Source: an uncultured Candidatus Saccharibacteria bacterium
GTDB taxonomy: Bacteria; Patescibacteriota; Minisyncoccia; Phycocordibacterales; UBA9973
Assembly: GCA_964496425.1 (NCBI GenBank)
Contig: CAZBZO010000006.1
Coordinates: 1,190-64,377, forward strand
Reading direction: 5' to 3'
Length of the DNA stretch: 63,188 bases
The position numbers and the translations under genes are program-made. Within the stretch, counting starts at the first letter, position 1. Each line of letters begins with the position of its first letter. This document shows, piece by piece, positions 4,762-42,049 of this stretch. The notes beneath the pieces are model-generated. The model did not search any database. It saw only the letters and a program-made list of their open reading frames with translations, and had not been told where the DNA came from.

Positions 4762-5988
4762 CTAGCTTTGTTTCTCTTCTGGCGCGCAAGTCGGGCATGA
4801 CTCACAGAGTTGGTCGCCGCTACGAAATGCGATGAGTGCTTTCTTCCACGGTAATATTGTCAGAAAGAAACGAAGATCAGCAATCTCACGTGCAACCCAA
4901 GCAAGACGGCCGAAGATTTTTACTTTTCCAATAACAAGCGCCGCCCAGCCATGCCCGACCGGAATATCGTAGGCATTTTTGACGGGAATGTATTTTTTCA
5001 TACTCTCCCCCTTGCTCATACGTAAAATATTTTTGGAAATAAATCTTCCATCTCGAAGAGCGGTTTGAGCAAGTCCAGCGTACGGCGTATCCGCAGCATC
5101 CCCTGCAATAAATATATCAGTAGCTCCCTTGGCTTCAAGATGTTCCCCAACGACGACCCGCCCATTTTTAGAAAGCTCAAGACCAGGTATTGTTTTATAA
5201 ATATGGTGAGGCTTTACTCCCGCTGTCCAAATAATAGTCTTGGATGCGAGTTCCATATCTTTGAGGCGTACACCTTCGGGTGTTTCCTCAAGAACATTTT
5301 TCCCAAGCAAAATATTCACGCCGAGCCGATCGAGCCGTCCTGATATTTTTTTTGACACAATCTCCGGCAACACTGGCAGCAGTCTCGGTGCAAGCTCAAT
5401 AATATCAAGGGTAACCAATTTTTTGGGAATCTCATGACGACGAGCAAGATCGTGAAGATAGAGCGCAAGTTCGCCCGCAAGCTCTACGCCAGTCGGACCA
5501 CCACCGACTACTACAAACTGCATTTTTGCCATAAGCTCTTCTTGCGAAAGCTGCTGATGGGAATCAAACAATGAATGAAGATGCCGTTTCAAGCGAAGAC
5601 CTTGATTTATGGATTTAAAAGTGTAGGAAAGCGTATCGAGGCCTGGCACTCCAAAAAATACTGTCTCACTCCCAAGTGCGAGGACTAAATAATCATATGC
5701 ATATTCCGAACCAGTCTCCCCTTTTGCTATTTTCTTCTCAGGATCGATCCCGACGATAGTGTCGATTTCAATTCGAACGTTTTTATCGTTGAAAATTTCT
5801 GAAAGTGGAATACAGACTTCGAGCGGACTTTTGCCTGTCACGACTTTATACAAGGTCGGATAGTATTCGAAATGGTGCTGATTGTTGATAAGGACGATTT
5901 CAAGATCACTTCCACAACGTGCGAGGTCAAGAGCGCTGCGAACACCAGCAAATCCTGCGCCGACAATGATGACTCTTTTTTTATGCAT
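4762..5988 (-). CDS. ndh: type II NADH dehydrogenase (NDH-2)
   Basis: VIIVGAGFAG, VLALGS, VVVGGGPTGVELAGEL, IWTAGV, FIAGD; C-terminal CxxCxxC. Confidence 0.88.
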   Translation of the reverse strand: MHKKRVIIVGAGFAGVRSALDLARCGSDLEIVLINNQHHFEYYPTLYKVVTGKSPLEVCIPLSEIFNDKNVRIEIDTIVGIDPEKKIAKGETGSEYAYDYLVLALGSETVFFGVPGLDTLSYTFKSINQGLRLKRHLHSLFDSHQQLSQEELMAKMQFVVVGGGPTGVELAGELALYLHDLARRHEIPKKLVTLDIIELAPRLLPVLPEIVSKKISGRLDRLGVNILLGKNVLEETPEGVRLKDMELASKTIIWTAGVKPHHIYKTIPGLELSKNGRVVVGEHLEAKGATDIFIAGDAADTPYAGLAQTALRDGRFISKNILRMSKGESMKKYIPVKNAYDIPVGHGWAALVIGKVKIFGRLAWVAREIADLRFFLTILPWKKALIAFRSGDQLCESCPTCAPEEKQS

Positions 5989-8351: not shown

Positions 8352-8388
8352 AAATGTAAAATCCCCATTTGATGGGGATTTTACATTT
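8352..8388. terminator. bidirectional terminator
   Basis: 17-bp perfect inverted repeat aaatgtaaaatccccat/atggggattttacattt between convergent genes. Confidence 0.8.
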
Positions 8389-10873: not shown

Positions 10874-10910
10874 AAAAAATGTTAAATACCATTAGTGGTA
10901 CTTGGGACTA

Positions 10911-12614
10911 TTATAGCACTTCTTTTTGATAACAAGCTTCGCAATATACTATTTCTGAGCGATCGGGAGCAAAAGCCGTCTCAAATGTATTAAGGCATAT
11001 ATTTTCGTGACCATGATCAGGGATGTCGCACATGCACGAGCGATGCCAGAGCTTTATCGGATTCTCCATTTTGAGACGTCTACTATTTCGACAGAAAAAG
11101 CACTCACGCGGAAGTGGCGCAGATATTCTCTGATGGAATTGAAGCTCTTCAGGAACAATTTTATAATTTCGCTCACACGTAATACAATCGAGAATCTCTT
11201 TAAGAATTTCTTCCGTTGTATTGCCAATCGCATCAGGCATGTTTTCAGCAAGCATTGTTTCTTTACCAGTCGTATGTTGAATTTCATCAAACCATGTATA
11301 CCCATTTCTCAGAGCTTCTTCTTTACTGAGTGGAAAATGTTCTTGCGCCATAGTTTCGTTATACCCAAAATATGAAAACTTGGCTGGAAAAAATTCTCCC
11401 CATTCCCTTGTCGCTCTCATATGCTCAATAATTTTTGGCACAAGCGCTTCATATTCTTCTTTCGTATATTCTTTATTTAGGATTAAATATTTTCCATGTC
11501 GTATTGCCGAACATCCAAAAAGATACTTCGATGAATGACAATTTTCCACATATGTGAGTTCCTGACTTTTTAGTGAATAAATTGAAAAGAACACTCGATA
11601 ATCATGGTCAGGCGTGAGTCCTTCATAACATTGGTCTGTCATGCCCGCCGGAGTGAGGTCGTAACTATTTTTTATTTCATTTCCACGGAAAAGAAAACGC
11701 GAATCTTCACAATCCCGAAGGAAACAGCTGTCTTTCGCATTTTTACATCCCCACAAACCGTCTCCTGTTGAATCGACACAGTTACGAATATTCGCAAACC
11801 GGCGAGGCTGTGTGGCCAAAAATTTGAAAAATTCTTTTTTCGCATACTCTGCTCCTGAATACGTATCGAGGCGGTATTCTTTCATAATTTTTTGATACTC
11901 CTCCTTTGTGAATTGTTTATTAAAAATGCAATAACTTTTCTGCCGCAGATTTACGCACATACAACAATTTGAACAACCCTTACAATCATATACAAAGACA
12001 CAGTCGGTAAGACCAGTGGAATAGTATGCATTTCGACAGTTATAACAATGCTCAAGAAATACTGAGTCGTAAATGAGTTCAGAATAATTAAAGATATCTA
12101 CGGTGTCTGTACAATAGCTCGTTTCGGGACCTGCATTATTGTAAAAATACATGCAATTCTCTGCGTACCACGTCATAGCACCCATATACATGTTCTTGGT
12201 AAACGTGGCATTGGTTGTGTATTCAGCATTTATACTTCCCACCCCGTCATCGTTAAACATTGCTGGCTGTGGAATAACATTTTGAAGATCGCGAAATTGT
12301 TCGAAAAACGGACGAGAGAAATCAAAATCGCGGCCATAGGTATGCGGATCCCAGGCATCGCTCCACCAGCATTTATTGCAATACACTACAAGTTTTTTCT
12401 TTGGCGAATGCAAAGAAATTATTTTTCTATTGCAAAGATCACATGTCCGGTTGTAAAACGAAAGGTCATTTCTCCATGCAAGACGGCGTTGGAGCCGGCA
12501 GGTCGAGCAAAATGTGGGTGCTGGCACACCAATCTTCTCATAAAACGAAAAATCATCGGGTTCGATGGTGAATTTTTGTGTGCAGTTTTGACAAATTTTT
12601 GTTTCTGGTTGCAT
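10911..12614 (-). CDS. Cys-rich multi-zinc-ribbon protein, paralog 1
   Basis: CQNC...PTFCSTCRLQRR, CxxC-x17-CxxC, WWSDAWDP, central CxxCxxC repeats, YGEFFP-like motif, C-terminal YCEACY. Confidence 0.85.
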   Translation of the reverse strand: MQPETKICQNCTQKFTIEPDDFSFYEKIGVPAPTFCSTCRLQRRLAWRNDLSFYNRTCDLCNRKIISLHSPKKKLVVYCNKCWWSDAWDPHTYGRDFDFSRPFFEQFRDLQNVIPQPAMFNDDGVGSINAEYTTNATFTKNMYMGAMTWYAENCMYFYNNAGPETSYCTDTVDIFNYSELIYDSVFLEHCYNCRNAYYSTGLTDCVFVYDCKGCSNCCMCVNLRQKSYCIFNKQFTKEEYQKIMKEYRLDTYSGAEYAKKEFFKFLATQPRRFANIRNCVDSTGDGLWGCKNAKDSCFLRDCEDSRFLFRGNEIKNSYDLTPAGMTDQCYEGLTPDHDYRVFFSIYSLKSQELTYVENCHSSKYLFGCSAIRHGKYLILNKEYTKEEYEALVPKIIEHMRATREWGEFFPAKFSYFGYNETMAQEHFPLSKEEALRNGYTWFDEIQHTTGKETMLAENMPDAIGNTTEEILKEILDCITCERNYKIVPEELQFHQRISAPLPRECFFCRNSRRLKMENPIKLWHRSCMCDIPDHGHENICLNTFETAFAPDRSEIVYCEACYQKEVL

Positions 12615-12619
12615 TTTTT

Positions 12620-12643
12620 CTACTAACTATTTCCTACTTACTA
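12620..12643. repeat. heptamer-period repeat, family A (inverted copy lacking one unit)
   Basis: Reverse complement tagtaagtagg-aaatagttagtag equals 17515-17545 minus tagtagt. Confidence 0.65.
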
Positions 12644-12645
12644 CC

Positions 12646-14340
12646 CTACAGCACTTCTCGTTGATAACATGCTTCACAATATATCACCTCTGGTCGCTCA
12701 GGCGCATACGGCGTGCGGATAGCCTTTTTACAAAAATCACAGTTTCGATCAAAAAGCCGAGTGGGTAAAAGTAGCTTTAATCTTTCAGCATGCCGCTCCT
12801 GTGGACACAAGCGTGGTAGAGGCAAACCCGCTTGACGATAAAACGCGAGCTCAGAGGGAATGATTCTATAGGCCTTGTCTGACACTTTACACTTAAGAAT
12901 CTTTTGTAAAATATCGTCACCAACGTCTTGTATGTCATCAGGGATCACATAATCAGAAAACTCGTAGTGTGTATCTGATACATACTCACTCCACGTGAAT
13001 CCTTGATCGATTACCTCTTCTTTTGTTAGTGGAAAGTTTTCAGGAGCAGTCGTTTCATTGTATCCAAATGGAGAAAGTTCCGAAGGAAAGAACTCACCGT
13101 ATGTGTATACTTTTCCTTTTTTGTCTACATACGGCATGTCGTTCATATGAGCTTTTATTTTCGGTAAAAGTGTCAAGTATTCATCTTTGGAATATCGGCG
13201 GTTTAAAATGACATATTCGCCACCACGAATCGAAACACAACCGAAACAATTGCTTGAACTCGTACTGACCGCACAATATTCCAGATTTTGCACCGTTACT
13301 TTTTTAAAAGGATCATTCGAAAGACACAGAAGTAAGAACTTCGAATTATACCCTCCACCACTACTTGAACATTCATACACGAGCTCAGCCGCTCCAAAGC
13401 ACGAACAATCGTATCCTTCCTTCACCCATCCGGTAATAAACATATGTTTGCAATTTTCAACCTTGGTTGACTCCCAGACATCATGAGCATTTTTTGATTC
13501 CGACACTGCATTACCAGTAACATCAACTGATTTAAATATTGTGTTTTCGCGATGTGGAGACTGTATCCATATCGGCATTGATTGCTCTTTCCACCACGAC
13601 GCTTCGGTATGTGAAGATACAGGATGTTCCTTTAGAAATTGCTCATATGATTCTTTGCTTTTTTGTTCATTAAAAATACAATACTGCTTGTTTCGGAGTC
13701 CTGCGCAACCAATAATATCCTTGCAGTTTCGACAATCATACGAAAAGAATGTATCAAGCGAATCATGACATTCAAGAGAATAGTGCGTATTATAATCGCG
13801 CTCGCAATGAACATTGTTACTACAGCGATCAGAATTGAGTATCCAGTAGTTATCAAAACAATTTTTGCTTTGCACGCCATATGTGCAGTAAGCTGAATCT
13901 TCGTTGTATAAACCACCAATATTTAAGTAGCAATTTTTACTGTCGGTTTCCTGATTAACCCATTCACTGTTGATACAGTTGGAATTGAAAATAGAAATAT
14001 GAGGAACGGTATAAAAAAGTTCCTTCCACTGATCAAAAAATGGTCGGGAAAAGTCATAAGCCCTGCCGTATGAATACGGATCCCATTTGTCGCTCCACCA
14101 GCAATTTGAGCAATACATTGGATACGGTTTGTCCGGTGAAATCCGGGAAACTACGCTCGTGTGGCACATATCGCAATCCCTCTTATAAAAATTACGCTCA
14201 TTACGAAATGAAAGTCTACGCTGAAATCTACAATCCGGACAAAATGTCGGCGGCGGAACACTCATCTTTTCGTAAAACGAAAAATCATCTGACTCGATGG
14301 TAAAATCTTTTTTGCAGTTTTGGCAGGTTTTTATTTCCAT
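12646..14340 (-). CDS. Cys-rich multi-zinc-ribbon protein, paralog 2
   Basis: Same architecture as paralog 1; start overlaps the stop of paralog 3 (TAATG). Confidence 0.85.
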   Translation of the reverse strand: MEIKTCQNCKKDFTIESDDFSFYEKMSVPPPTFCPDCRFQRRLSFRNERNFYKRDCDMCHTSVVSRISPDKPYPMYCSNCWWSDKWDPYSYGRAYDFSRPFFDQWKELFYTVPHISIFNSNCINSEWVNQETDSKNCYLNIGGLYNEDSAYCTYGVQSKNCFDNYWILNSDRCSNNVHCERDYNTHYSLECHDSLDTFFSYDCRNCKDIIGCAGLRNKQYCIFNEQKSKESYEQFLKEHPVSSHTEASWWKEQSMPIWIQSPHRENTIFKSVDVTGNAVSESKNAHDVWESTKVENCKHMFITGWVKEGYDCSCFGAAELVYECSSSGGGYNSKFLLLCLSNDPFKKVTVQNLEYCAVSTSSSNCFGCVSIRGGEYVILNRRYSKDEYLTLLPKIKAHMNDMPYVDKKGKVYTYGEFFPSELSPFGYNETTAPENFPLTKEEVIDQGFTWSEYVSDTHYEFSDYVIPDDIQDVGDDILQKILKCKVSDKAYRIIPSELAFYRQAGLPLPRLCPQERHAERLKLLLPTRLFDRNCDFCKKAIRTPYAPERPEVIYCEACYQREVL

Positions 14341-15992
14341 TAGCTAATATTGCTTTTATAGCAATCTTCACAAGATACATTCTCATACCCCCACGATCGT
14401 GGATAGTATCCAACAATATTTTTTGAACAATAAAAACATGAATAGTTTTCTCCTTGCGTGGGTGCAAGTAGCCGCATTCGACTCTTTGTACGTACATCAA
14501 AATGCACTCGTGGCAGGGCTATATTCTTTCTCTTAAGAAATGCGAGTTCGTCTGGCGCTATATTAAAACGCCACCCTGTTACAGGGCAAATAAGTGCCTG
14601 TTTTGAAATACTTCCTGAGATATCATGTATGCTATCAGGTAAATCATTCGTCGCGATCCCCTCTATATGATCTTCTCTGGAATCGTCCCAATATCCTCCT
14701 TGAGAGAGCACAAATTCCCTTGAGACTTCAGGAAAATAAATTTGTGCAGTTGTTAAATTATACGGACACAGTCCCATATTGTATGGGAGAAATTGTCCGT
14801 ATTCATTCCTGGCTCGCATATCGGAAATTATTGTTTCGCGAAGACTTTCATATTCTTCTTTTGTGTATTGTTTATTGAGAATGCAATATTTCTTCTTTCG
14901 TAGCCCTACACATCCAAAACAATATTCAACCTCTGCGCATTGGTCGAGGTACTCCGAATACCGACCATCAGACCACGAAGAATACTTAAGCTGATATCCA
15001 GCTGTTGCACAGCTATTTCTTCCCGAGAGCTCGATTTGCCAACAGCCTAACATATCAATACAGTCTGTGGCAGTACGGCCACGTAGGCAGTCGTAACAAT
15101 TTTCCGAATCTTCAAAGCTAAAAACATTATGACAATTATTACAGTTTGCAAGATAGGTACCTTCCGAATTATACGTATTCAAAGTAAAATTTTGTCGGTG
15201 AACAAAATCTTTTTTTAAAATCTCTTCGTATCGTTCTTTTAGTTTTTCCAAACTTTTGTTTGAACTTAGATCATATTCCTTGAGTTTTTCTACATATTCC
15301 TCTTTGGAATATTGCTTGTTCTCGATACAGTATTGCTTCCCGCGCAAATTCCAACACATGGTGCAATTGGTGCAATTACGGCAGTCATACAAAAATTGGG
15401 AATCCATACAATCCCGACAGTTACGCGAAAACAAAACATTAAAAGAATTGAAGGTATATGTACATTCGTAACAATTATCAAGGTTAAACACATGCGAAAT
15501 ATCAATCGAATCTTTTGTATCAAACGCACGATATCCATAGGAAAGATTCTCGCTACGAGCGATGGAACGAGAAAGATAACAATTTTTACATTCCCATGCA
15601 TCATCACACCAGTCAGAATTTGTATTTTGTGCACCTTGCTGATGTGGGCGCGGCACCTTTTCTTGTAGCTCTTTCAATTGGTCAAAGAAAGAGCGACTGG
15701 GGTCATACGTCAAACCAAAACTCATTGGGTCCCAAGCATCAGAAAACCACTCACTTGAAGTATAGATCGGATATCGGGCACTTGCCGGAAGTATAGTAAT
15801 GAGATTTTCTCCAGATAAATCAGACGTTCCCTTCCGAAACTTCCCAAATGGCCAAAAGGCGAAATAGTGCTTCATCCGACAGGAAAAACACTGGGTCGGA
15901 AGTGGAATCGCTACCTTCTCATACATAGAAAGCTCGTCAGGAGAAATTGTGAAACGTGTTTGGCAATGCTCGCAAACTTTTTGAGTATCCAT
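14340..15992 (-). CDS. Cys-rich multi-zinc-ribbon protein, paralog 3
   Basis: Same architecture, but second zinc site altered (SDLS...TSSE); TGG-TAGTCT 6 nt upstream. Confidence 0.85.
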   Translation of the reverse strand: MDTQKVCEHCQTRFTISPDELSMYEKVAIPLPTQCFSCRMKHYFAFWPFGKFRKGTSDLSGENLITILPASARYPIYTSSEWFSDAWDPMSFGLTYDPSRSFFDQLKELQEKVPRPHQQGAQNTNSDWCDDAWECKNCYLSRSIARSENLSYGYRAFDTKDSIDISHVFNLDNCYECTYTFNSFNVLFSRNCRDCMDSQFLYDCRNCTNCTMCWNLRGKQYCIENKQYSKEEYVEKLKEYDLSSNKSLEKLKERYEEILKKDFVHRQNFTLNTYNSEGTYLANCNNCHNVFSFEDSENCYDCLRGRTATDCIDMLGCWQIELSGRNSCATAGYQLKYSSWSDGRYSEYLDQCAEVEYCFGCVGLRKKKYCILNKQYTKEEYESLRETIISDMRARNEYGQFLPYNMGLCPYNLTTAQIYFPEVSREFVLSQGGYWDDSREDHIEGIATNDLPDSIHDISGSISKQALICPVTGWRFNIAPDELAFLKRKNIALPRVHFDVRTKSRMRLLAPTQGENYSCFYCSKNIVGYYPRSWGYENVSCEDCYKSNIS

Positions 15993-16023
15993 CTTTAGAG
16001 ACTACCATTTCTCTAATTAAATA

Positions 16024-17511
16024 CTAGATAAGGGGCTCGGCGGTCGCTTCAGCTTTGGCGGGTGCCGCTTCTTCCTCTATTTCTTCCCCACTAGCGTCAT
16101 CTTTGCGGGCTTTACGAGTAATAGCTGCTTTTTCTTGTGCGCTACGAATGATAGAGGATTCTTCTTCTTCAATGAGTTTCTTGGCAGCATCAGCGGTGAT
16201 GGCATATTTGCGGCGCGAAGCAGCAAGAATTTCTGCTTTGTATGACGGATGCGTGGCTGGCAAGACTTTCAAGGTCTCGGCAGAAAACGGATCGTAGGAT
16301 TCTCCATCGATTGTCATTTTGATATAGAACTCCGCAATACCTAAGTTGATCATATCTTTGATATCGAAGATCGGCGCAAATTCTGGCTTGAGCTCAACAG
16401 CGTCCTCGCCGCCCACACGGAAGCAAATAAGTGAGGCCACATTACCACGAACTGCTCGCTGAATCTTTTGCGACAGTTGTCCCAGGTACTGGTTGGCGAC
16501 AATAAGATTGAGGCCGTATTTACGGGCCTCAGAGAGAATGTTTTCAAATGTATCAGTGACCACGTTTTGAAACTCGTCCACGTAGAGATAAAAGTCTTGG
16601 CGGTCTTTAGGATCCATTTTTGCGCGCGCCATACCCGCCTGTTTGATTTTGGTGAGAAACATGGAACCAAAGAAGCTCGAGTTTTCTTCACCAATTTTTC
16701 CCTTAGAGAGATTGATGAGAATAATTTTTTGACTATTCATCAAGGCTTCAATATCGACTTTGTTTTCTTTTTGACCAAAAATATTTCGAAGCATCGGGTC
16801 GGAGAGAAACTGCCCGAGCTTGTTGACGAGCGGAATGATAGCGTCGGTGTCAAATTTTTCTGACCAGTCGGCAAATTCAATCGCCCAGAAGCGCTTGACC
16901 ATATCGTCTTCGATATACTCCACCACTTTCTGACGGTAGTTACGATCTGTGAGCATCGAGATCATACCGCGCATCGTGGCATGCGGATAGTCGAGGAGTG
17001 CGAGAGTCGTGAAACGAAAGACGTGCTCCAAGCGTGGCGTCCAGTTGGCCCCAAATTGTTTCTCCAACACTTCGATCAAACCCTGCGTGAGTTGGTGCTT
17101 GAAAGTGAGGTCGATATTTTGCAGTGGATTGAAAGAAGCTGGATAGTCGATATCGGACGGATCAATAATACACACATCCTCGATGCGATCTTCTGGCACG
17201 AAATTTAAAATATCATCGATAAATTCTCCGTGCGGATCGATCACACAGAGGCCATGGCCATAGGCAATATCTTGGCGCACCATCAGCTCTTGGAGTTTGG
17301 ATTTGCCGACACCAGACTTGCCGACGATGTACATATGACGTCTACGGTCAACACGCTTAATGCCGAAGATAAATTTCTTTTCTTCAAGTGCCGCTACATA
17401 GTTGGTGCGGCCAATAAAAACGATGTCAGCAGGATCCCCTTGCCCATACATCGGCAGCTCCGGTGGCGGTGGCGCATATTTGATTATTTGGATTTTATTG
17501 GCGCGTGGCAT
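16024..17511 (-). CDS. VirD4/TraD (HerA-FtsK)-like ATPase, second paralog
   Basis: Walker A GKSGVGKS, LYVDEFQN, SEARKY, ANQY; collinear with the ATPase core of 8381..10873. Confidence 0.85.
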   Translation of the reverse strand: MPRANKIQIIKYAPPPPELPMYGQGDPADIVFIGRTNYVAALEEKKFIFGIKRVDRRRHMYIVGKSGVGKSKLQELMVRQDIAYGHGLCVIDPHGEFIDDILNFVPEDRIEDVCIIDPSDIDYPASFNPLQNIDLTFKHQLTQGLIEVLEKQFGANWTPRLEHVFRFTTLALLDYPHATMRGMISMLTDRNYRQKVVEYIEDDMVKRFWAIEFADWSEKFDTDAIIPLVNKLGQFLSDPMLRNIFGQKENKVDIEALMNSQKIILINLSKGKIGEENSSFFGSMFLTKIKQAGMARAKMDPKDRQDFYLYVDEFQNVVTDTFENILSEARKYGLNLIVANQYLGQLSQKIQRAVRGNVASLICFRVGGEDAVELKPEFAPIFDIKDMINLGIAEFYIKMTIDGESYDPFSAETLKVLPATHPSYKAEILAASRRKYAITADAAKKLIEEEESSIIRSAQEKAAITRKARKDDASGEEIEEEAAPAKAEATAEPLI

Positions 17512-26411: not shown

Positions 26412-27578
26412 CTATCGGCAGGCTTTGATTACTTTCATGTAGTACGCGACATATTTTTCGAGCGCCTTCTGTACTCCAAAGTCACGAGTTGCACGAACGA
26501 GAGCTTGTGCACCAAGACTCTCTACCAATTCCCTATCTGCTTCAAGTTCGAGTAGTTTCTTGGCAAAATCATTCACCTGCCCTACTCCACACAAGTAGCC
26601 TGTGGTACCGTGTTGCATAAATTCTTTGATGCCGCCAGCACGAGTCGCTAGGACAGGCTTGCCGTAGCTCATCGTCTCAAGTATCGCCATACCAAAGCTC
26701 TCTTCGCCTGATGTGTAGAGACCGATATCTGCTGCATTGATATAGTTTTCTATATCCATAATGTTGCGCTTTACGATCACACGATCAGCGATACCGAGTT
26801 TTTTGACCAATGCTTCATACGGAGCGAAGTCCCCGCCGGCGAGAACAAGCAGTTTGATCCTTGGGTTCTTTTTCACTTTCGCTATGATCGAAAGAAGATC
26901 CGGGATTCGTTTCACCGGACGGAGATTGGACAAATGAATAACCAGAAAATCTGCCGCCGAAACCCCAAGGCTTTTCCGCACGACTTCTTTTGATTTTGTG
27001 ATTTTTTTAGGATTGTAGAAATTGTGTATGACTTCAATATGCTTTTTTGTTTTTAAAACCTTTTCGGTATCTTTTTTCAAGCTCTCAGATACAGCAGTGA
27101 CGCCACAGGAGGTCTCAATAGAATATTTGATGACCGGCATGACTCTTTTGTCTCGCGCCAAAAGGGTAATGTCTGTACCGTGAAGTGTCGTGACGACATT
27201 TGGAAAATGAAGTCCTTCTTCAAGGGCAATGTTTTTAGCGAGGAGTGCAGCGGTGGCATGTGGCACAGCATAATGCACATGCAAAATGTCGAGCGTATAT
27301 TTCTGGCTGATCTCCACCATTTTTACTGCCAGAGGCAGCGTATAGTCCGGATATTTGAAAAGCTCGTAGCCATTGAAATCTACTTTATGAAAAAATATTC
27401 GTGGCTGAGCGAGATCGAGCAAAAACGGTGGATCGTAGCTTATAAAATGCACACTGTGTCCCGCGCGTGCAAGCTCAGCGCCCAACTGGGTTGCAACAAT
27501 ACCCGAGCCGCCGACCGTGGGATAGCACACAATACCGATGCGGAGTTTTGGGTTGCGAGATTTTGAATTTGAGGACAT
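26412..27578 (-). CDS. bshA: N-acetyl-alpha-D-glucosaminyl L-malate synthase (bacillithiol biosynthesis)
   Basis: CYPTVGGSG, HVHYAVPHA, TTLHGTDIT, SNLRPVKR, ESFG motifs. Confidence 0.88.
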   Translation of the reverse strand: MSSNSKSRNPKLRIGIVCYPTVGGSGIVATQLGAELARAGHSVHFISYDPPFLLDLAQPRIFFHKVDFNGYELFKYPDYTLPLAVKMVEISQKYTLDILHVHYAVPHATAALLAKNIALEEGLHFPNVVTTLHGTDITLLARDKRVMPVIKYSIETSCGVTAVSESLKKDTEKVLKTKKHIEVIHNFYNPKKITKSKEVVRKSLGVSAADFLVIHLSNLRPVKRIPDLLSIIAKVKKNPRIKLLVLAGGDFAPYEALVKKLGIADRVIVKRNIMDIENYINAADIGLYTSGEESFGMAILETMSYGKPVLATRAGGIKEFMQHGTTGYLCGVGQVNDFAKKLLELEADRELVESLGAQALVRATRDFGVQKALEKYVAYYMKVIKACR

Positions 27579-27640
27579 TGAAAATATTTTAAATTAATTC
27601 TAGGTAGCGATTCGATTTTTCTAACAAGACGGATTGTGCT

Positions 27641-27725
27641 AAACATATATGAGGTATTTGGAGTGCAACGGCACGACAACGAAGGGAATTTTCTAGCAAG
27701 AAAATGACCGACCTCATATATGTTT
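27641..27725. repeat. structured palindromic element, copy 2
   Basis: Perfect 15-bp terminal inverted repeat enclosing GA-gtgc-AACG-gcac-GA and attttct-AGCA-agaaaat. Confidence 0.75.
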
Positions 27726-27739
27726 TGTACGTGTAGTTT

Positions 27740-28444
27740 CTAATAGTTCCGCGACGATCCAAGATCTCCGAGATTTTCCACTCTTATAGAATCTGAGGCC
27801 CAAAGTCCGACCGCATATTCAACGCCGATTGTAGCTCCGAAATAGCGTGCTTTACTACTCACCAAATTGAGATATTCCCGAGTTTTCATCTGACTCTTAT
27901 GGCATGACATAGCTTTGACCCAGTCTTCATAGTGAGCGGAAACATCAACAATAATATCTGGCCGTGCATCAAACTCTGCGCTTGATGGATAAAAATAAAG
28001 CGCATCAATAGCATGCACAGGAATATTTTTAATTTCTTCTAGTCCACCATAGCGGGCAAGGCGTGCAGCATCACGTACTGTTTCTGCGACCGCGCGATGG
28101 TCAGGATGTTGGTTTGCCATAAGGGATGGCGCAAGTACGATGTCGGGTTGGTATACGCGAATGATTTCCGCCAAACGAATTCTGTTCTCAGGTGTGTTTA
28201 GGATATGGCAATCCCCTCCCATGTCGATACATTCTATTTCAGCGCCGATGAATTTTGCCGCCGCTTCTGCCTCAGCTTTGCGGCTCTCTGGCGTACCGTT
28301 TGTACCTGCTTCTCCAAGCGAGCCGATGACTATTTTCACCTGGGCGCCATTCTTTATTTCCTTGATCAAAAGCCCTCCACAGCCAAATTCCACATCGTCC
28401 GGATGCGCCCCAAATGCTAGGATTTTTTTAGTTTGTTGTTTCAT
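27740..28444 (-). CDS. bshB1: bacillithiol biosynthesis deacetylase (PIG-L/LmbE family)
   Basis: AHPDDVEFG, HPDH, CHKSQ motifs; adjacent to bshA. Confidence 0.82.
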   Translation of the reverse strand: MKQQTKKILAFGAHPDDVEFGCGGLLIKEIKNGAQVKIVIGSLGEAGTNGTPESRKAEAEAAAKFIGAEIECIDMGGDCHILNTPENRIRLAEIIRVYQPDIVLAPSLMANQHPDHRAVAETVRDAARLARYGGLEEIKNIPVHAIDALYFYPSSAEFDARPDIIVDVSAHYEDWVKAMSCHKSQMKTREYLNLVSSKARYFGATIGVEYAVGLWASDSIRVENLGDLGSSRNY

Positions 28445-28481
28445 ATATTTAAGCAAAGCTAGTATAGCAGAAAATGAGATT

Positions 28482-28994
28482 TTAGGGTTTGAGGCTATTT
28501 AAAAAAGTTTTCTCTTCCCTTTCATTACGCAAAATAACAACTTTCTTATTATTGGAATACCCCAGCACTTTCTCTCTAATTTCTTTTGTTGGATACTTCC
28601 AAATAAATTTGATTAAATTCCAATGTAATTGTTCTTTGTGACTCTCTGGCATATCTGGTCGTCGTCGACGATGATATTTTATTCGTCTCCATAGCAGTCT
28701 CCAGTAAATAACTAATTTAGAAAATTCAAAATAGATTATCATGTCAGCCGCAGAAAGTCGCATATCAAAGGACTTTGATTTCATATAATTACCATCAATA
28801 ATCCATTGAGCCCCTTTCATCATTTCTTCTTGTTGTGCAATAAAATTATCTTGCGTAATACCACCTTTTTCAACCCAAAAAATCTTATCCAAATGATAGA
28901 CCGGGATATTTAAGATACTCCCTATTTTATTAGCAAGTGTAGTTTTGCCCGAACCAGGGCAGCCGACAATTGCGATTTTGCGTGGCGTAAACAT
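28482..28994 (-). CDS. P-loop kinase-like protein (DNA topology modulation/FlaR family)
   Basis: IVGCPGSGKTTLA, VYHLDKIFW, WIIDGNY; ATG 28994. Confidence 0.8.
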   Translation of the reverse strand: MFTPRKIAIVGCPGSGKTTLANKIGSILNIPVYHLDKIFWVEKGGITQDNFIAQQEEMMKGAQWIIDGNYMKSKSFDMRLSAADMIIYFEFSKLVIYWRLLWRRIKYHRRRRPDMPESHKEQLHWNLIKFIWKYPTKEIREKVLGYSNNKKVVILRNEREEKTFLNSLKP

Positions 28995-28995
28995 G

Positions 28996-29772
28996 TTAAA
29001 TAGTGGTTGGAATATAAGCGAGGTCTTGTTGATCGATCGCATCTCGCTCAACAAATGTGACGTCTGGAAACTCATCTTTTTTCAAATACCCACCTTCGCC
29101 GACACCAGATACATAATGCGTCGCATGAAGGACCGACTGCATCCAAGCAAAGCGCTCTTCACGACCGGGATTTTTTTGCCATTTTTCGATAGTCTGGGGC
29201 ATAGGAATCGTAAAATAGTTACCACCGCCTTCATGGAGTCGCAGTGCGCCTTCGTGGAGCTCCGCTCGCACGATTTCGCCTTCATAGGACACATCCGCGT
29301 AGTATTCTGTCTGCACAATGGCATTCATGCGAATATCTCTGTCGCTCGAACGTACCACTTCAATACCGTCGAGTAACCCCATTTTTTCATAGAGCGAGAG
29401 ACAAAAGTCAGCAACCGTCGTCGCTTTGACGCTTGCGAACATTTCAACTAATCTTTTATCGACATAGCGCGGGAGCTTGCGTATCATATCTTCCTGCCAG
29501 CCCGCAGCGATTTTTTTTATATACAACGGTGAATATTTTTTCTCAATTTTATTGTCTACTAGGAAATTGAGTCGGACTTCTTTTTTAGTTTCCGGATCGA
29601 TGAATGTTGTAATCGTTTCTTTGTAGTCTGCATCAGAGTCATGGTAGAAGAAAACAATTCTCCCACCGATCTCTTTTTGCAATCTTCGCGCCGTCTCTAT
29701 CTTGGCATACAAATACCGCTTCGGAAAAAATCCGTTGGGTTGTTGACCGAAAGCGATAATGGGGGAAGACAT
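28996..29772 (-). CDS. short BshC-like protein (258 aa)
   Basis: FGQQP...YAKIETARRL...IVFFYHDSDAD parallels the BshC N-terminal TGQQ...YK...FW..EDHD; C-terminal YVSGVGEGGY; located in the bsh cluster. Confidence 0.6.
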   Translation of the reverse strand: MSSPIIAFGQQPNGFFPKRYLYAKIETARRLQKEIGGRIVFFYHDSDADYKETITTFIDPETKKEVRLNFLVDNKIEKKYSPLYIKKIAAGWQEDMIRKLPRYVDKRLVEMFASVKATTVADFCLSLYEKMGLLDGIEVVRSSDRDIRMNAIVQTEYYADVSYEGEIVRAELHEGALRLHEGGGNYFTIPMPQTIEKWQKNPGREERFAWMQSVLHATHYVSGVGEGGYLKKDEFPDVTFVERDAIDQQDLAYIPTTI

Positions 29773-29923: not shown

Positions 29924-31666
29924 TTACACCCGCTCGCCGATCTGCTGACGCCACATAGCATAGTAGAGTCCTTTAGCTTCCAGAAGCTCGGCATGCGCGC
30001 CATGCTCAACAATTTTTCCTTTTTCCAGCACATAGATACGATCAGCGTGCATGATCGTCGATAGCCGGTGCGCGATCAAGACACTGACTCGAGTACTTCC
30101 CGCTGACACGTCACGGATAGTTTTGGTGATCTCTTCTTCGGTGATCGAGTCAAGTGAGCTTGTCGCTTCATCAAAAACCAAAATCGTCGGTTTGCGCAAA
30201 AGCGCCCGCGCGATCGAAAGACGTTGCTTTTCACCACCAGAAACTTTCACGCCACCTTCCCCGATCACCGTATCAAGACCTGACCCGCCGCGGGAAAGGA
30301 GATTTTGGCATTGAGCTTGTGTCAGTGCGAGCAGACATTCCTCGTCGGTTGCTTTTGGATTGACGAAAAGCAAGTTTTCACGAATGGTGCCAGCAAAGAG
30401 CTGAGTATCCTGAGTGACAAATCCAAACTGCGCACGCAGAGTATTGAGATCTAGATCTTTCATCGACACATCATTGAAAAATACTCCACCCGTAAGTGGC
30501 TCATAGAGCCCGACCAATAGCTTTACCAAGCTCGTCTTGCCCGAACCTGAGGGTCCCACAAAAGCGATCGTCTCGCCGCTTTTGGCCTCAAAACTAATAT
30601 GCTCAAGTGCATGAGTCTTTCCGCTTTTGTATCCAAAGGAGACATCGCGAAATTCAAGTTTTCCGATTTTATCCATAGGAGTAGCATTTTCCGGCGTAGG
30701 CTCGACGGGCATATGCATAATCTCTTCAAATTTTTTGAGCGCGACTTCGGCTTCGCGGTAGTTGTTGATGACGTTGCCGAGCTCTTGCAGTGGCCCAAAT
30801 ATAAAGAAGGAGTAAATATAGAGTGAGAAAAATTGTCCGAAGGTCACCGTGCGATTGAACACCAAATACAAAAGAAATGCCAAGACGAGTGTGCGCATGA
30901 GATTGATCATGGTGCCTTGTACAAAACTAATACTCCGGATATAACGGAGCTTTTTGAGTTCAAGTTTGAGAATCTTCTCCGTGGTTGCGTTTAGCCGGCT
31001 GATCTCCTGCCCCACCAGTCCGAGACTTTTCACCAGCTCAATATTGCGCAGACTTTCAGTCGTAGCTCCGGCAAGCGCAGTCGTTTCCGCCAAAATGATG
31101 TTTTGAATCCGCTTTACTTTTGAAGTCAAAAAATATGAAAGCCCGCCGATGATCGGTATGGTAAGCGCATACACGAGAGCGACGCCCCAATAAATCGTAA
31201 ACGCATAAATCGAAACAAAAATAAATCCAATGATCGACACGAAAGCCACGTTGATAAAAGCGTTGACGAAGGTCTCGCTTGATGTGCGTACTTTCTGAAG
31301 CGTGCCCAAAGTCTCCCCGCTTCGCTGATCTTCAAAGACTTCGTACGGCAAGGCCAAAGAGTGCTCGATGCCGTCGTTGTATATTTTGGCACCTGTGCGC
31401 TGAGTGACCGTGTTTAGATAATAATCCTGAAAATTCTTGGCGACGCGGGATACAAAGGCGACGCCGACTGCCATCAAAAGTAAATACGACACTCCGCGAA
31501 TAAATTCACTTAAGGTATACGTATCAAACTTCGTGGCATAGTCGTCGATGATATGACGAAAAATCAAAGGATCCAGAAGCGAAAAGGTCTGATTGATAGC
31601 AGCCAGCAAAAGGACGAGTAGGCAGAGCTTCCAATGATGTTTGAGGTATTTGAGGAGGATTTTCAT
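29924..31666 (-). CDS. ABC exporter, fused permease/ATPase
   Basis: GPSGSGKT, VSGGEKQR, LVFDEATSSLD; ATG 31666 (alternative 31684). Confidence 0.92.
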   Translation of the reverse strand: MKILLKYLKHHWKLCLLVLLLAAINQTFSLLDPLIFRHIIDDYATKFDTYTLSEFIRGVSYLLLMAVGVAFVSRVAKNFQDYYLNTVTQRTGAKIYNDGIEHSLALPYEVFEDQRSGETLGTLQKVRTSSETFVNAFINVAFVSIIGFIFVSIYAFTIYWGVALVYALTIPIIGGLSYFLTSKVKRIQNIILAETTALAGATTESLRNIELVKSLGLVGQEISRLNATTEKILKLELKKLRYIRSISFVQGTMINLMRTLVLAFLLYLVFNRTVTFGQFFSLYIYSFFIFGPLQELGNVINNYREAEVALKKFEEIMHMPVEPTPENATPMDKIGKLEFRDVSFGYKSGKTHALEHISFEAKSGETIAFVGPSGSGKTSLVKLLVGLYEPLTGGVFFNDVSMKDLDLNTLRAQFGFVTQDTQLFAGTIRENLLFVNPKATDEECLLALTQAQCQNLLSRGGSGLDTVIGEGGVKVSGGEKQRLSIARALLRKPTILVFDEATSSLDSITEEEITKTIRDVSAGSTRVSVLIAHRLSTIMHADRIYVLEKGKIVEHGAHAELLEAKGLYYAMWRQQIGERV

Positions 31667-31719
31667 AGGGTATTGAGGTGGCATTATAACACATTGCTAC
31701 CAGCTCGTTTAAATTTAAA

Positions 31720-34796: not shown

Positions 34797-37091
34797 ATGC
34801 ATCACACCAAAACTTACAAAGTAAAAGGAATGCATTGTGCCTCCTGTGCAGGCATCATTGAGAAGACCTTCAAAAAGACAGAGGGGGTTCATTCTGTGGA
34901 AGTGAATTATGGAACTGAAACTGCCAAGATTGCTTTTGATGAAGCAAAAACAAATCCACATCATCTATCCGAAAAAATAGAAAAGCTCGGTTATTCTCTT
35001 GTCGTTCCTACCGCAGAAGAAATGGGGATGTCCGCTAGTGAACACGCAGGACACCTCGGGTTGAACCAATCAAAAAAAGAAAAGTTGGCAGAGATTTCTG
35101 ATATGAAGAAAAAAGTTATGTCTGTGATACCTTTAGCTGTTTTCAGTATATTTTTAATGAGCTGGGATATTTTAGCTCAATTTAATTTCGTTACTGAAGC
35201 TCCCTATGTTTGGAAGGAGTTTTTTCATCATTTGCTGCCCGTATTTGCTACTTATACTCTGTTTGTAGTAGGTAAACCTTATCTTCTTGGTATGTATCGT
35301 TTCTTCCGATATGGCAAAGCTAATATGGACACCTTGATTGGTATTGGTACTTCTGTTGCCTTTCTATATAGCTTTATTGTAACTGCTTTTGAAGAAAACC
35401 TCAGACCTTTTATTAATGTAGAGCATTCTTATTACGATGTAGCAATTGTTGTGATTGCTTTCATAACTCTAGGAAAATATCTTGAAGCTCGTTCAAAAGT
35501 AAAGACAGGAGATGCAATAGAAAAACTTCTTAACCTTCAAGCCAAGACGGCACTTGTTATTCGTGATGGAAAAGAAATTGAAGTTCCTATAACCCAAGTA
35601 GTTCACGGAGATTTAATTGTGGTAAAGCCAGCTGGTAAAATCCCTGTTGATGGAGTTATCACGGAGGGCAGTTCCTACATTGATGAAGCTATGGTTACAG
35701 GAGAGCCAATGCCTATTGAAAAGAATGTTGGAGATGCAGTAGTCGCAGGAACTATTAATACCACTGGCTCATTTACTTTCAAGGCAACAAAAGTTGGTTC
35801 TGAAACCTTTCTAGCAAATATCATTAAAATGGTTCAAGAAGCTCAAGGTAGTCGTGCTCCGATACAAGCTCTTGCCGACAAAATATCAAGCGTATTTGTC
35901 CCTATTGTTTTAGTTCTAGCAGTTCTTTCTCTTGCTATATGGCTTCTCGTTGGAACATACTATCTCGGTTTCTCACAGGCACTTTCCAATGGACTGGTCT
36001 CTTTTGTGGGTATTCTTGTTATCGCTTGCCCTTGTGCTCTAGGGCTTGCTACGCCGACCGCAATCATAGTAGGTGTTGGCAAAGGTGCTAAGGAAGGTAT
36101 TCTTATCAAAGATGCAGGAACATTGGAGAAACTTCATAAAGTAAATACTGTTGTAGTCGATAAAACAGGCACACTTACAAAAGGAAAACCAGAGTTAGTA
36201 TATATTAAAAATATTTCTGATAAAAAAGATGAGGACCTAATTGCAATCTTGGCAACATTAGAAAAGAAATCTGAACATCCTATTGCACACGCTATCGTTT
36301 CTTATGCCAATGAACATAAAATAAATCTTTTCTCCGTAGATAACTTTGAAGCAATTAAGGGTAAAGGATTAAAAGGTGTTATTTCTAATACAGAATACTA
36401 TGCTGGGAATGCGAAACTGATAACAGACCTAAAGCTATCATTAGACATTAAATCTATTGAGAAAGAAACCACTGAAGGTAATACTCCTATCATTCTAGCC
36501 ACGAAAGAAAAGATACTAGGAATAATACTTGTTGCTGATGCAATAAAGCCCGAAGCAAAAGAAGCTGTTACTAACTTACACAAGCTAGGTATTAAAGTTG
36601 TGATGCTCACTGGAGATAATAAAAATACTGCAAAGTATATCGGGGAACAGGTTGGTATTGATGAAGTGTTTGCCGAAGTTATGCCAGAAGATAAGCTAAA
36701 GAAAATTAAAGAGCTACAAGCACAAGGGAGGATAGTAGCTATGGCAGGAGATGGTGTAAATGATGCACCAGCCCTTGCTCAAGCGGATGTAGGCATAGCT
36801 ATGGCAACAGGGACAGATGTAGCTATTGAAAGTGCGGGTATCACACTACTTCACGGAGATATAAGTAAACTTGTAAAAGCGGTCCACTTATCAAAATTAA
36901 CAATGCGAGGCATTAAGCAAAACCTATTCTGGGCGTTCTTCTATAACATTGTCGGTATACCGCTTGCAGGAGGGCTCTTCTATCCGATATTCGGTTGGCT
37001 TCTCAATCCCATCTTCGCAGGTTTTGCAATGGCCCTTTCCAGCGTGTCCGTTGTCGGGAACTCGCTTCGCTTAAAAGCGAAAAAATTATAA
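34797..37091 (+). CDS. copA: Cu(I)-exporting P1B-type ATPase
   Basis: HMA GMHCASC, TGE, CPC, DKTGT, GDGVNDAP, YN and MALSS motifs. Confidence 0.95.
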   Translation: MHHTKTYKVKGMHCASCAGIIEKTFKKTEGVHSVEVNYGTETAKIAFDEAKTNPHHLSEKIEKLGYSLVVPTAEEMGMSASEHAGHLGLNQSKKEKLAEISDMKKKVMSVIPLAVFSIFLMSWDILAQFNFVTEAPYVWKEFFHHLLPVFATYTLFVVGKPYLLGMYRFFRYGKANMDTLIGIGTSVAFLYSFIVTAFEENLRPFINVEHSYYDVAIVVIAFITLGKYLEARSKVKTGDAIEKLLNLQAKTALVIRDGKEIEVPITQVVHGDLIVVKPAGKIPVDGVITEGSSYIDEAMVTGEPMPIEKNVGDAVVAGTINTTGSFTFKATKVGSETFLANIIKMVQEAQGSRAPIQALADKISSVFVPIVLVLAVLSLAIWLLVGTYYLGFSQALSNGLVSFVGILVIACPCALGLATPTAIIVGVGKGAKEGILIKDAGTLEKLHKVNTVVVDKTGTLTKGKPELVYIKNISDKKDEDLIAILATLEKKSEHPIAHAIVSYANEHKINLFSVDNFEAIKGKGLKGVISNTEYYAGNAKLITDLKLSLDIKSIEKETTEGNTPIILATKEKILGIILVADAIKPEAKEAVTNLHKLGIKVVMLTGDNKNTAKYIGEQVGIDEVFAEVMPEDKLKKIKELQAQGRIVAMAGDGVNDAPALAQADVGIAMATGTDVAIESAGITLLHGDISKLVKAVHLSKLTMRGIKQNLFWAFFYNIVGIPLAGGLFYPIFGWLLNPIFAGFAMALSSVSVVGNSLRLKAKKL

Positions 37092-39355: not shown

Positions 39356-42049
39356 ATGGAGACATGGCCAAGCCCAAAATCTAAACATGAACTGAAGGAG
39401 CAGATAAAAGATACTAATAAAGTTCTTGCTGTACCGATTTCTTCTGCGTCAATAAATAAAGAGTTACGGAAACTAACAACCGAAGAAATTAAAGAAAAGT
39501 ATACTGAAAGGTATGAAGTATATTTGAGAATTCTTCGTGCACAAAAGAATAATCAAGAAATATCAGAAGAAGATATACTTAACACCCAGAAATGGATTGA
39601 GTCACTAAACAATCTTGATCGATATATTGATTCTCATCAAAATAGGCAAGAAAAAAGAATATTGCGAGAAAAACAGTTTACTGTTTTTGAAAATGTAAGA
39701 AAATCATTAGAACAGGGTAAAAAGGAAGGATATATTAAACTTCCAACTGGTGTTGGGAAAACAGTACTGTTTTCCCAGATTGTTGAGTCTCTAGGCACAA
39801 AAACACTTATTTGTGTTCCATCGAAAATTCTCGTTACCCAAACTGGAGAGAAACTTGAAGAATTTACTGATGTAGAATTTGGAAAATATTTCCAGCATGA
39901 AAAAGATTTCTCAAAAGATGTTACTATAATCACATATCAGTCACTTATCAACGGAATTGAGAAGGGTATTATTAATCCCAAAGACTATGGGGCAATCATC
40001 TTGGATGAAGTGCACAAAGCCTTAGGTGGAAAAACTTCTGAGGCAATAAATAAATTTAATTGTATTAAACTCGGTTTCACCGCGACTCCACAATACACTG
40101 ATAAAAATGTAAGCGAACTCCTTGAGCACGAGATTCATAGTATGAGTATTGCAGAAGGCGTAAATGGTGGTCTCATAAATCGCTTTAAATCTATCTTTGC
40201 CCATACAGAAGTTGATCTTTCAAAAGTTAAAATCAAACAGGGTGAATATGATCAAGATGAGCTTGAAAAGGCGGTCAACATACAAGCCAGAAATCTTTCA
40301 GCAGTTCAACTCTATAAAGAAATGTTCGTGGGACAAAGTGCTATAGCTTATTGTTCAGGAGTTACTCACGCTAAAGATATGGCTGATCTTTTTAATAAAT
40401 ATGGCGTATCTGCAGCTGCAATAACTGGAACAACATCTCAAGGAGATAGAGAGATAATTCTCAAAAAATATCATGCCGGAGAAATCAAAGTTTTATGTAA
40501 TGCAAAAGTACTTATAGAGGGTTTTGACGAGCCTCACGCAAGTGTAGCTCTTAATCTCCATCCGACGCTCTCAAAGGTTAACGCAGAACAACGCGCGGGC
40601 CGTGTTTTACGTCTCGATAATGACAATCCTGAAAAATGGGCTTATGTTGTTGATTTTATTGACAAAAATGCGAGAAAACCACAAGTCACATTTCCAGAAA
40701 TTGCTGGAGCTAGTGAACTTAGTTCTGATATAGAGCCAGGTGCGGAATCTCGTGATGGAAGTAGTAGAGAACATCTCTTAGGTAACAATAAAATCCCCGA
40801 AATCCAAGGATTAAGAATAATTCTTGATACACAAGAGGTAATGCGCATGAGTGAACAAGGCGTTCTTGCTAGAGAAGCAAGCGAAAGCAAGAGGTGGGTT
40901 TTTGAAAAGCTCAAAAGAGAGGTTCAGGGAAAAGGAGTCAAGAGTCCAAAAGAATATGAAGCCCTGCGCCAAAAATATAAATGGCTTTCGTCACGAAATC
41001 TTTTACTTAGACCTGAATTTAAAGGCTGGGATGATTTTTTAGATGGCAAAAAACTTTTTCAGAACTTAAAAAAAGAGGTGCAAGAAAAAGGAATTAAAAC
41101 TTCTGGCGAATATGCTCGTAATTCGCCCAAATATCATTGGCCCTCATTAGCTACTCTTATGAGTAAATCTGAATTTAAAGGCTGGGATGATTTTTTAGAT
41201 CGTGATCTTGAGGCGAAAGCACTGCAAAAGCAGAAATATTTTGATCAGTTAAAAAAAGAGGTAAAAGAAAAAAATATTAGCTCTTCTACTCAATATGCAG
41301 CAGTTGCAAAGATTTATAAATGGCCGGCTCTAACTACACTTGCGGCCTTTCCAATGTTTAAGGATTGGGATGATTTTCTGGGAAGAGAAAAATTTAATTT
41401 TGAAAAGTTTAAATTGGAAGTACAAGCAAAAGGCATTAAATCATCTACAGAATATATAGATGTTTCGCCCGAAAACAAGTGGCCAAATTTCTCTACCCTT
41501 ATTAAAAACCCGAAATTTATCAGCTGGGATGATTTTCTAGGAAGGGAAAAGAAATTATGGACAACTTATGAAGACTTAAAAAAAATGGTGCGGGAAATGG
41601 AAGTCCAGAATCCTTACCAATATAGCAGATTGCAACCAAAGTATCGCTGGCCTTCAAAGGAAGCTCTTATAAAGAAACCGGAATTTACAAACTGGGGAGA
41701 TTTCTTGGGAATTGAAAATATGAAAGAATGGACGGTAGATGAACTAAAAAAAGTCGTTAATGAGACAAATATAAAATCTACACACCAGTATCAAAAAATA
41801 AGTTCTATAAAAAAGTGGCCTGATTTTTCAACCGTTAAAAAGATGGCTGGATTCAGAGATTGGAATGATTTTTTTGATACTGAACCAAAAAAAGCCTGGA
41901 CTCTCAGTGAATTAAAAAAAGAATTAATAGGAAAGAATGTGACCACCAAAGGAAAATACAAATTGCTCTCACCCAAATTAGGATGGCTGGATCACAGAAA
42001 AGTTGAAAAGCTTCCCGGCTTTTCAAGTTGGGATGAATTCCTCTCTTAA
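39356..42049 (+). CDS. SF2 DExH (ResIII-like) helicase with seven C-terminal tandem repeats
   Basis: LPTGVGKT, ILDEVH, GFTATP, QRAGRVLR; 7 copies of F/L..LK.EV....I....Y......W......F..W..F(L/F). Confidence 0.88.
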   Translation: METWPSPKSKHELKEQIKDTNKVLAVPISSASINKELRKLTTEEIKEKYTERYEVYLRILRAQKNNQEISEEDILNTQKWIESLNNLDRYIDSHQNRQEKRILREKQFTVFENVRKSLEQGKKEGYIKLPTGVGKTVLFSQIVESLGTKTLICVPSKILVTQTGEKLEEFTDVEFGKYFQHEKDFSKDVTIITYQSLINGIEKGIINPKDYGAIILDEVHKALGGKTSEAINKFNCIKLGFTATPQYTDKNVSELLEHEIHSMSIAEGVNGGLINRFKSIFAHTEVDLSKVKIKQGEYDQDELEKAVNIQARNLSAVQLYKEMFVGQSAIAYCSGVTHAKDMADLFNKYGVSAAAITGTTSQGDREIILKKYHAGEIKVLCNAKVLIEGFDEPHASVALNLHPTLSKVNAEQRAGRVLRLDNDNPEKWAYVVDFIDKNARKPQVTFPEIAGASELSSDIEPGAESRDGSSREHLLGNNKIPEIQGLRIILDTQEVMRMSEQGVLAREASESKRWVFEKLKREVQGKGVKSPKEYEALRQKYKWLSSRNLLLRPEFKGWDDFLDGKKLFQNLKKEVQEKGIKTSGEYARNSPKYHWPSLATLMSKSEFKGWDDFLDRDLEAKALQKQKYFDQLKKEVKEKNISSSTQYAAVAKIYKWPALTTLAAFPMFKDWDDFLGREKFNFEKFKLEVQAKGIKSSTEYIDVSPENKWPNFSTLIKNPKFISWDDFLGREKKLWTTYEDLKKMVREMEVQNPYQYSRLQPKYRWPSKEALIKKPEFTNWGDFLGIENMKEWTVDELKKVVNETNIKSTHQYQKISSIKKWPDFSTVKKMAGFRDWNDFFDTEPKKAWTLSELKKELIGKNVTTKGKYKLLSPKLGWLDHRKVEKLPGFSSWDEFLS

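Follow-up and report, generated by a model that had tools for sequence, protein, structure and literature searches.

Bacillithiol-type thiols guard cells against oxidants, electrophiles and metals, and the closest described counterparts of the locus presented here are the bacillithiol enzymes BshA, BshB and BshC. In the passages of Hiras et al. 2018 that deal with their survey, finished genomes were searched with bshA, bshB and bshC queries, similar length being required, and Verrucomicrobia are named among the lineages without a documented or predicted low-molecular-weight (LMW) thiol (PMC6282198). This outcome is consistent with a third enzyme having been overlooked. Our analysis concerns a stretch of 63,188 nucleotides (hereafter the window; positions 1,190 to 64,377 of contig CAZBZO010000006.1, assembly GCA_964496425.1) from an uncultured Candidatus Saccharibacteria bacterium, in which four neighbouring genes resemble a bacillithiol pathway:

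28996..29772, minus strand: 258-amino-acid (aa) protein of an unannotated family, putative truncated BshC (open reading frame, ORF, and profile comparison)
28482..28994, minus strand: P-loop NTPase/kinase-like gene of the FlaR or 'DNA topology modulation' type (PRK08118, Pfam AAA_17)
27740..28456, minus strand: PIG-L family deacetylase, BshB1-like (PF02585, TIGR04001)
26412..27578, minus strand: glycosyltransferase family 4 (GT4) enzyme BshA (TIGR03999 equivalog)

The first-pass annotation had described them as co-oriented bshC-like, kinase-like, bshB1 and bshA genes, and both their coordinates and their common strand were borne out. Our results led us to propose that the 258-aa protein is probably a truncated homologue of BshC that adds cysteine to glucosaminyl-malate (GlcN-malate), encoded in an operon for a bacillithiol-type thiol. 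More broadly, the family may supply the overlooked third step of bacillithiol-type synthesis across Patescibacteria, Verrucomicrobiota, Melainabacteria and other phyla, so that these lineages would have a major LMW thiol; we judge the chances of this wider proposal to be about even.

In the pathway that we propose, BshA would couple UDP-N-acetylglucosamine and L-malate to yield N-acetylglucosaminyl-malate, and the PIG-L enzyme would deacetylate this intermediate to GlcN-malate, two steps suggested by the family membership of the proteins. The 258-aa protein would then add cysteine to the free amine of GlcN-malate, giving bacillithiol or a close derivative. Remote homology and operon linkage point to this last step, and it is from them that we infer the catalytic role, cysteine as the substrate and the nature of the product. 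Compared with BshC, the protein would keep the nucleotide-binding core resembling that of class I aminoacyl-tRNA synthetases (aaRS), the beta-hairpin subdomain and the shared motif blocks, and would have dispensed with the N-terminal ~80 residues, a helical insert of ~45 residues and the C-terminal coiled-coil dimerisation domain.

The length of the protein needed attention, since the longest ORF of the gene encodes 345 aa from position 30033 and intrudes on the 3' end of the ABC-transporter gene that lies upstream. In the family alignment the starts of the homologues all match position 29772 (M-x-x-P-I-I-C-F-G-Q-Q-P); therefore 258 aa is the correct length, as had been annotated. The TAA stop of the gene occupies 28998-28996, and the ATG of the P-loop gene, at 28994, is 1 base away; the longest ORF of the latter begins at 29075, 28994 being its likely start.

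The relationship with BshC was assessed with hhalign, using as reference the B. subtilis sequence, checked against PDB 4WBD. The BshC profile contained 32 sequences from Bacillaceae, Staphylococcus (S. aureus), Paenibacillus and Deinococcus, and the family profile 116; the divergent BshC sequences (S. aureus, Paenibacillus, another Bacillus and Deinococcus) were annotated genes, taken partly from mislabelled 'plasmid' records. The two profiles aligned with a score of 36.2 (P=6e-4, no secondary-structure term) and did so colinearly, residues 1-258 of the family pairing with residues 80 to ~400 of BshC. This score was reached by none of 200 column-shuffled BshC profiles (mean 16.6, standard deviation 2.8, maximum 26.1; z=7), and reversed BshC profiles scored 18-20. 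With narrow profiles, in which BshC was represented by Bacillaceae only, the score was 25.5 (P=0.021) and was equalled by 1-3 of 150 shuffles; it rose to 36.2 once both profiles were diversified, becoming convincing only after the BshC sequences of S. aureus, Paenibacillus and Deinococcus had been added, and against a single BshC sequence the C-terminal motif alone was aligned. Divided into four non-overlapping pieces that were aligned one by one with full-length BshC, the family gave its best match at the colinear place every time (P=0.027, 0.044, 0.042 and 0.0041). The profile comparison that the first-pass annotation had suggested, with P=6e-4 and no shuffled profile reaching the score, therefore speaks for BshC.

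Along this alignment, 31 columns are at least 80% conserved in both families, and 17 of them carry the same residue. These identities (family/BshC) are G9/G90, Q10/Q91, Q11/Q92, G14/G94, K24/K105, A28/A113, D47/D134, D49/D136, E52/E139, G136/G226, R207/R334, Q212/Q338, T218/T344, G223/G350, E226/E353, Y229/Y356 and P236/P376. The shared positions fall in a G-Q-Q-x-G...K loop after strand 1, a D-x-D-x-x-E motif after strand 2, the glycine before strand 3 and an R...Q...T...G-x-G-E-x-x-Y block; H104, H135, P99, R292 and R377 of BshC are unmatched at the aligned family column. The family also has strictly conserved motifs of its own, namely H-D-S-D (44-47), S-P-L-Y (81-84), A-D-F-C (122-124) and L-H-E-G-G-G (179-184), for which BshC offers no conserved counterpart. 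Cys7, near-invariant elsewhere in the family, is replaced by Ala in the window protein.

The AlphaFold2 (AF2) model of the 258-aa protein was a confident one, with a predicted local distance difference test (pLDDT) value of 88 and a predicted template-modelling (pTM) score of 0.86, and the AF2 model of BshC matched 4WBD with a template-modelling (TM) score of 0.99. On the hhalign alignment, which had been made from sequence only, the DSSP strings of the two models are in accord at 71% of 249 positions; shifting the alignment by 3-100 residues lowers this figure to 25-50%. Strands and helices of the two models pair one to one, the extra elements of BshC being the N-terminal helical region 1-80, a longer helical pair at 235-268, an additional helix at 313-322 and everything past ~400, coiled coil included. 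Foldseek placed the catalytic domains of class I aaRS nearest to both models among solved folds and, judging by the topology of the models, the GQQ loop would lie at the HIGH place and the G-x-G-E-x-x-Y loop at the KMSKS place of these synthetases. Together, the profile similarity, the 17 identical positions, the order of secondary-structure elements and the gene order described below back the earlier view of a half-length BshC that keeps the catalytic core. That view had further supposed a protein reduced to the Rossmann core; truncation held, and a bare Rossmann domain did not, as the beta-hairpin subdomain and the C-terminal motif block are kept.

The family proved to be large and tight. 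Homologues of the 258-aa protein formed 4053 clusters at 90% identity, and the best 120 of these were all ~255-265 aa long, named 'hypothetical' and without Pfam domains. Relatives were present in at least 569 species genomes when one genome per GTDB species was scanned. Gene neighbourhoods were studied in 83 related loci, 81 of them non-redundant and belonging to at least four phyla. By record title, the carriers among the best 80 loci included Patescibacteria (Nomurabacteria, Paceibacterota, Doudnabacteria, Peribacteria, Wirthbacteria and some labelled Saccharibacteria), Verrucomicrobiota (Opitutaceae, Lacunisphaera, Pedosphaera, Chthoniobacterales and the RefSeq record Horticoccus sp. 23ND18S-11), Melainabacteria/Obscuribacterales and Baltobacteraceae. 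A bacillithiol-type module had been noted earlier as a peculiarity of a genome like those of the candidate phyla radiation (CPR). The module is indeed there, and 'CPR-like' is a reasonable description because the nearest relatives of the three conserved genes are metagenome-assembled genomes of Patescibacteria (63-79% identity); the family is, however, not specific to CPR, being equally present in Verrucomicrobiota, Melainabacteria, Baltobacteraceae and other phyla. A neighbour-joining tree united all 24 Patescibacteria sequences in one bipartition and all 8 Melainabacteria sequences in one clade. The position of the Patescibacteria sequences argues against a recent horizontal transfer into this CPR genome, an explanation that was dropped. 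A tblastn search of a plasmid collection with the family protein found nothing, and from 1.84 billion representative proteins a profile search retrieved the family and its fragments only, with no full-length BshC among the 150 matches listed.

Gene orders, established from tblastn with the window proteins and from gene calls, tied the family closely to bshA and bshB. The full order family gene-bshB-bshA, on a single strand and with short gaps, occurred in 66 of the 81 non-redundant loci. Another 5 had the family gene followed by bshA and 7 had it followed by bshB, the contig ending before a possible bshA in 6 of these 7; the neighbourhood was different in the remaining 3. Thus bshB and/or bshA lay directly downstream of the family gene in 78/81 loci, and bshB did so in 73/81. 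Across phyla, the median identity to the window proteins was 54% for the family protein, 45% for BshB and 49% for BshA, the family protein being the best conserved of the three. A few loci departed from this arrangement: neither bshA nor bshB was adjacent in L029 and L048, which form a branch of their own in the family tree; L024 had a PIG-L gene on the opposite strand and no adjacent bshA; and L044 kept bshB, with no bshA despite room on the contig. These four may represent a split operon or a different role.

As for the individual enzymes, BshA scored 419 bits on TIGR03999, whose equivalog cutoff is 273.7 (runner-up NCBIfam model, 86 bits), and its syntenic orthologues of Verrucomicrobiota, Melainabacteria and Baltobacteraceae, with 405-409 bits, were also above the cutoff. 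BshB1 (TIGR04001, 165 bits) is by far the best NCBIfam model for the predicted deacetylase, the runner-up being BshB2 with 41 bits. The deacetylase also passed Pfam PIG-L PF02585 (83.6 bits vs 28.2), and its translation shows the AHPDD and HPDH metal-binding motifs.

The P-loop gene had been listed in the first-pass annotation as a kinase-like gene beside the other three. It is present and co-oriented, its product carries the Walker A motif GCPGSGKT, and its best model is PRK08118 (DNA-topology-modulation/FlaR; 160 bits, under the cutoff of 215), with Pfam AAA_17 also matched. The tblastn search with the window proteins found it in none of the 83 related loci, however, and it does not belong to the conserved module. 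A kinase as a member of the pathway was therefore rejected, and the gene is a lineage-specific insertion in the operon, translationally coupled to the 258-aa gene.

Several results weigh against the identification of the 258-aa protein as a BshC, and some of them would be expected if the likeness were due to chance or convergence, the protein having an unrelated fold and acting with the GT4 and PIG-L enzymes on a glycoconjugate foreign to thiols (a sugar of the cell envelope or a compatible solute, for example). The main evidence of this kind came from the structural comparison suggested in the first-pass annotation, which went the other way from the profile comparison: 4WBD was not among the top 50 Foldseek matches of the family model in the PDB, though present in the library, and all matches were weak (best E 3e-3, TM ~0.3). 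The 258-aa protein had no Pfam or NCBIfam match even at E<=1, a search in which it fell below any threshold for BshC membership (PF10079 or NCBIfam), and neither as a single sequence nor as a 35-sequence profile did it match any PDB entry, BshC included. PF10079, the Rossmann-like domain of BshC, was matched by only 1 of 35 family members (E=0.015), and a hidden Markov model of BshC barely separated real family sequences from shuffled decoys. The hhalign probability was only 28.7%, obtained without the secondary-structure term and well under the usual confidence level. The C-terminal alpha-helical coiled-coil dimerisation domain (PF24850, BshC 400-539) has no counterpart in the protein, and BshB stayed below its equivalog cutoff (TIGR04001, 165 vs 182.5 bits). 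The absence of profile-level matches, the low hhalign probability and the negative Foldseek result are what a chance likeness has in its favour. The shuffle control (z=7), the colinearity of four separate pieces and the 71% agreement in secondary structure contradict it, as do the BshA orthologues of three other phyla, which score above the equivalog cutoff, and we consider a chance origin the least probable of the explanations, and a very improbable one.

Homology to BshC carries its own caveat, which also counts against our proposal: the cysteine-ligase activity of BshC has never been reconstituted in vitro (PMC4360819), and for this reason homology transfers a genetic role and no proven chemistry. 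The failure to reconstitute the activity could hint at a missing partner or cofactor (PMC4360819), and the 258-aa protein might accordingly have an accessory or regulatory function, for instance as a scaffold or as a subunit that senses nucleotides, and the enzyme that adds cysteine would be encoded elsewhere, be it a canonical BshC or an unrelated ligase. Our tblastn search for canonical BshC spanned the window and the flanks of the loci, which leaves room for such an enzyme in other parts of the carrier genomes and is a further point against the proposal. Within that scope, canonical BshC was found neither in the window nor in the flanks of any of the 83 loci, and the passages cited above report Verrucomicrobia as lacking a predicted LMW-thiol pathway on bshA, bshB and bshC queries (PMC6282198). 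As the protein keeps the putative active-site motifs of BshC and is the most conserved of the three, a mere accessory role appears very unlikely to us. A less distant alternative, still an unlikely one, is a nucleotide-binding ligase or transferase (HUP/class-I-aaRS-like) with GlcN-malate as substrate that attaches a group other than cysteine, or modifies the substrate in another way. The product would then be related to bacillithiol yet chemically distinct, either a variant thiol or a non-thiol. An operon with bshA and bshB indicates a common pathway rather than a chemistry, Foldseek gave no close BshC match, and H44-D45-S46, S81-P82-L83-Y84, C124 and L-H-E-G-G-G 179-184 are strictly conserved without a BshC counterpart, all of which would suit such an enzyme. 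Set against this, at positions that are near-invariant among the BshC proteins of Bacillota and Deinococcota the family mostly has identical residues, which argues for the same core chemistry, and BshA passes a model specific for malate. On this balance, a truncated BshC that adds cysteine is the reading that we favour.

The surroundings of the operon contain other genes that may bear on thiol metabolism. Two of them lie 5-8 kb from it in the window:

34797-37091, plus strand: copper P-type ATPase (CopA-type), passing TIGR01511
37344-38351, plus strand: HMA-DsbD_2 membrane protein

Six further Patescibacteria loci (L001, L016, L020, L027, L031 and L043) have the same pair no more than 6 kb from the operon, and one of them, L001, also has a CsoR-type repressor. 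A role of the thiol in the handling of copper or zinc is speculation. Directly upstream of the BshC-like gene is an MsbA/CydDC-like ABC exporter (29924-31684, minus strand), below every NCBIfam cutoff and kept in eight loci (L004-L007, L009, L021, L024 and L073); it could export the thiol or a conjugate of it. Flanking genes of the operon in other CPR genomes are those for glucose-6-phosphate dehydrogenase and 6-phosphogluconate dehydrogenase, which supply NADPH, and those for the methionine sulfoxide reductases MsrA and MsrB (L001, 12549-16362; L003, 3166-6247 and 10087-12510). The copper, exporter, NADPH and Msr neighbours fit a role in redox and metal buffering, and are no proof of it.

Farther away in the window, 4762-5988 (minus strand) encodes a 408-aa pyridine-nucleotide-disulfide oxidoreductase (best model TIGR03169, 112 bits, far under the cutoff), a possible disulfide reductase for the thiol, though nothing ties the gene to the operon. 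The run of large genes at 8381-17511 (minus strand) comprises two coupling ATPases similar to TrwB/VirD4 and HerA/DUF87, one with a treble-clef zinc finger, and three proteins of ~550 aa without a Pfam match, and may specify a secretion or DNA-transfer apparatus. Between 38000 and 46000 the GC content is 0.32-0.38, against ~0.43 elsewhere in the window. Genes for a ResIII/DEAD helicase (39356-42049) and for an AAA_21 ATPase (43820-45607) lie in this low-GC part, which is possibly an island that was acquired or that serves defence. A scan for consensus promoters and terminators gave nothing informative.

If our proposal is correct, an operon of the form bshC'-bshB-bshA in at least 569 species genomes would alter the picture of LMW thiols, as surveys seek full-length bshC and these phyla are consequently scored as lacking the pathway. 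The literature that we found on bacillithiol together with CPR, Patescibacteria, Verrucomicrobia or Melainabacteria gave no account of the family or of bacillithiol genes in these groups, and by that literature a thiol pathway has not been predicted before for CPR, Verrucomicrobia or Melainabacteria. A redox buffer would be added to the strongly reduced metabolism of CPR bacteria, and the 'hypothetical protein' labels of thousands of genes would be corrected. Furthermore, a minimal BshC of 258 residues would show which parts of the enzyme are dispensable and provide a simpler protein for assays, crystals and the study of the catalytic mechanism. The existence of cultured carriers (Horticoccus, of the Opitutaceae lineage) makes the prediction directly testable.

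In summary, the 258-aa family resembles BshC (PF10079 and PF24850; PDB 4WBD, B. subtilis YllA) in its motifs GQQ-x-G...K, D-x-D-x-x-E and R...Q...T...G-x-G-E-x-x-Y, in an order of strands and helices that matches BshC 80-400 within what is, in the models of both, a class-I-aaRS-like nucleotide-binding fold, and in its genetic association with bshA and bshB. It differs in being half as long (258 vs ~540 aa), with no Pfam or NCBIfam BshC model recognising the window protein; in having neither the N-terminal domain of ~80 residues, nor the helical insert (BshC 240-285), nor the coiled-coil dimerisation domain; and in possessing the additional invariant motifs HDSD, SPLY, ADFC and LHEGGG. The family gene heads a bshC'-bshB-bshA operon, whereas bshC of B. 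subtilis belongs to a separate operon (PMC4360819). With respect to the canonical bshA-bshB1 pair of Bacillota, the two downstream genes are alike in their adjacency and common orientation, in a BshA score above the equivalog cutoff and in having BshB1 as the top-scoring model of the deacetylase; the differences are the BshB scores of 121-165 bits (cutoff 182.5) and the short BshC-like gene that precedes the pair. Among class I aaRS, the Foldseek neighbours were GluRS, TyrRS, GlnRS and TrpRS for the family model (TM ~0.3, weak) and LysRS-I, ArgRS, CysRS, GluRS and MetRS for the BshC model. The family shows no sequence similarity to these synthetases or to MshC, the mycothiol cysteine ligase and CysRS paralogue, and no HIGH or KMSKS signature appears in its alignment; in its pathway, however, it would occupy a place analogous to that of MshC, that of an amino-sugar ligase acting after a GT4 glycosyltransferase and a PIG-L deacetylase.

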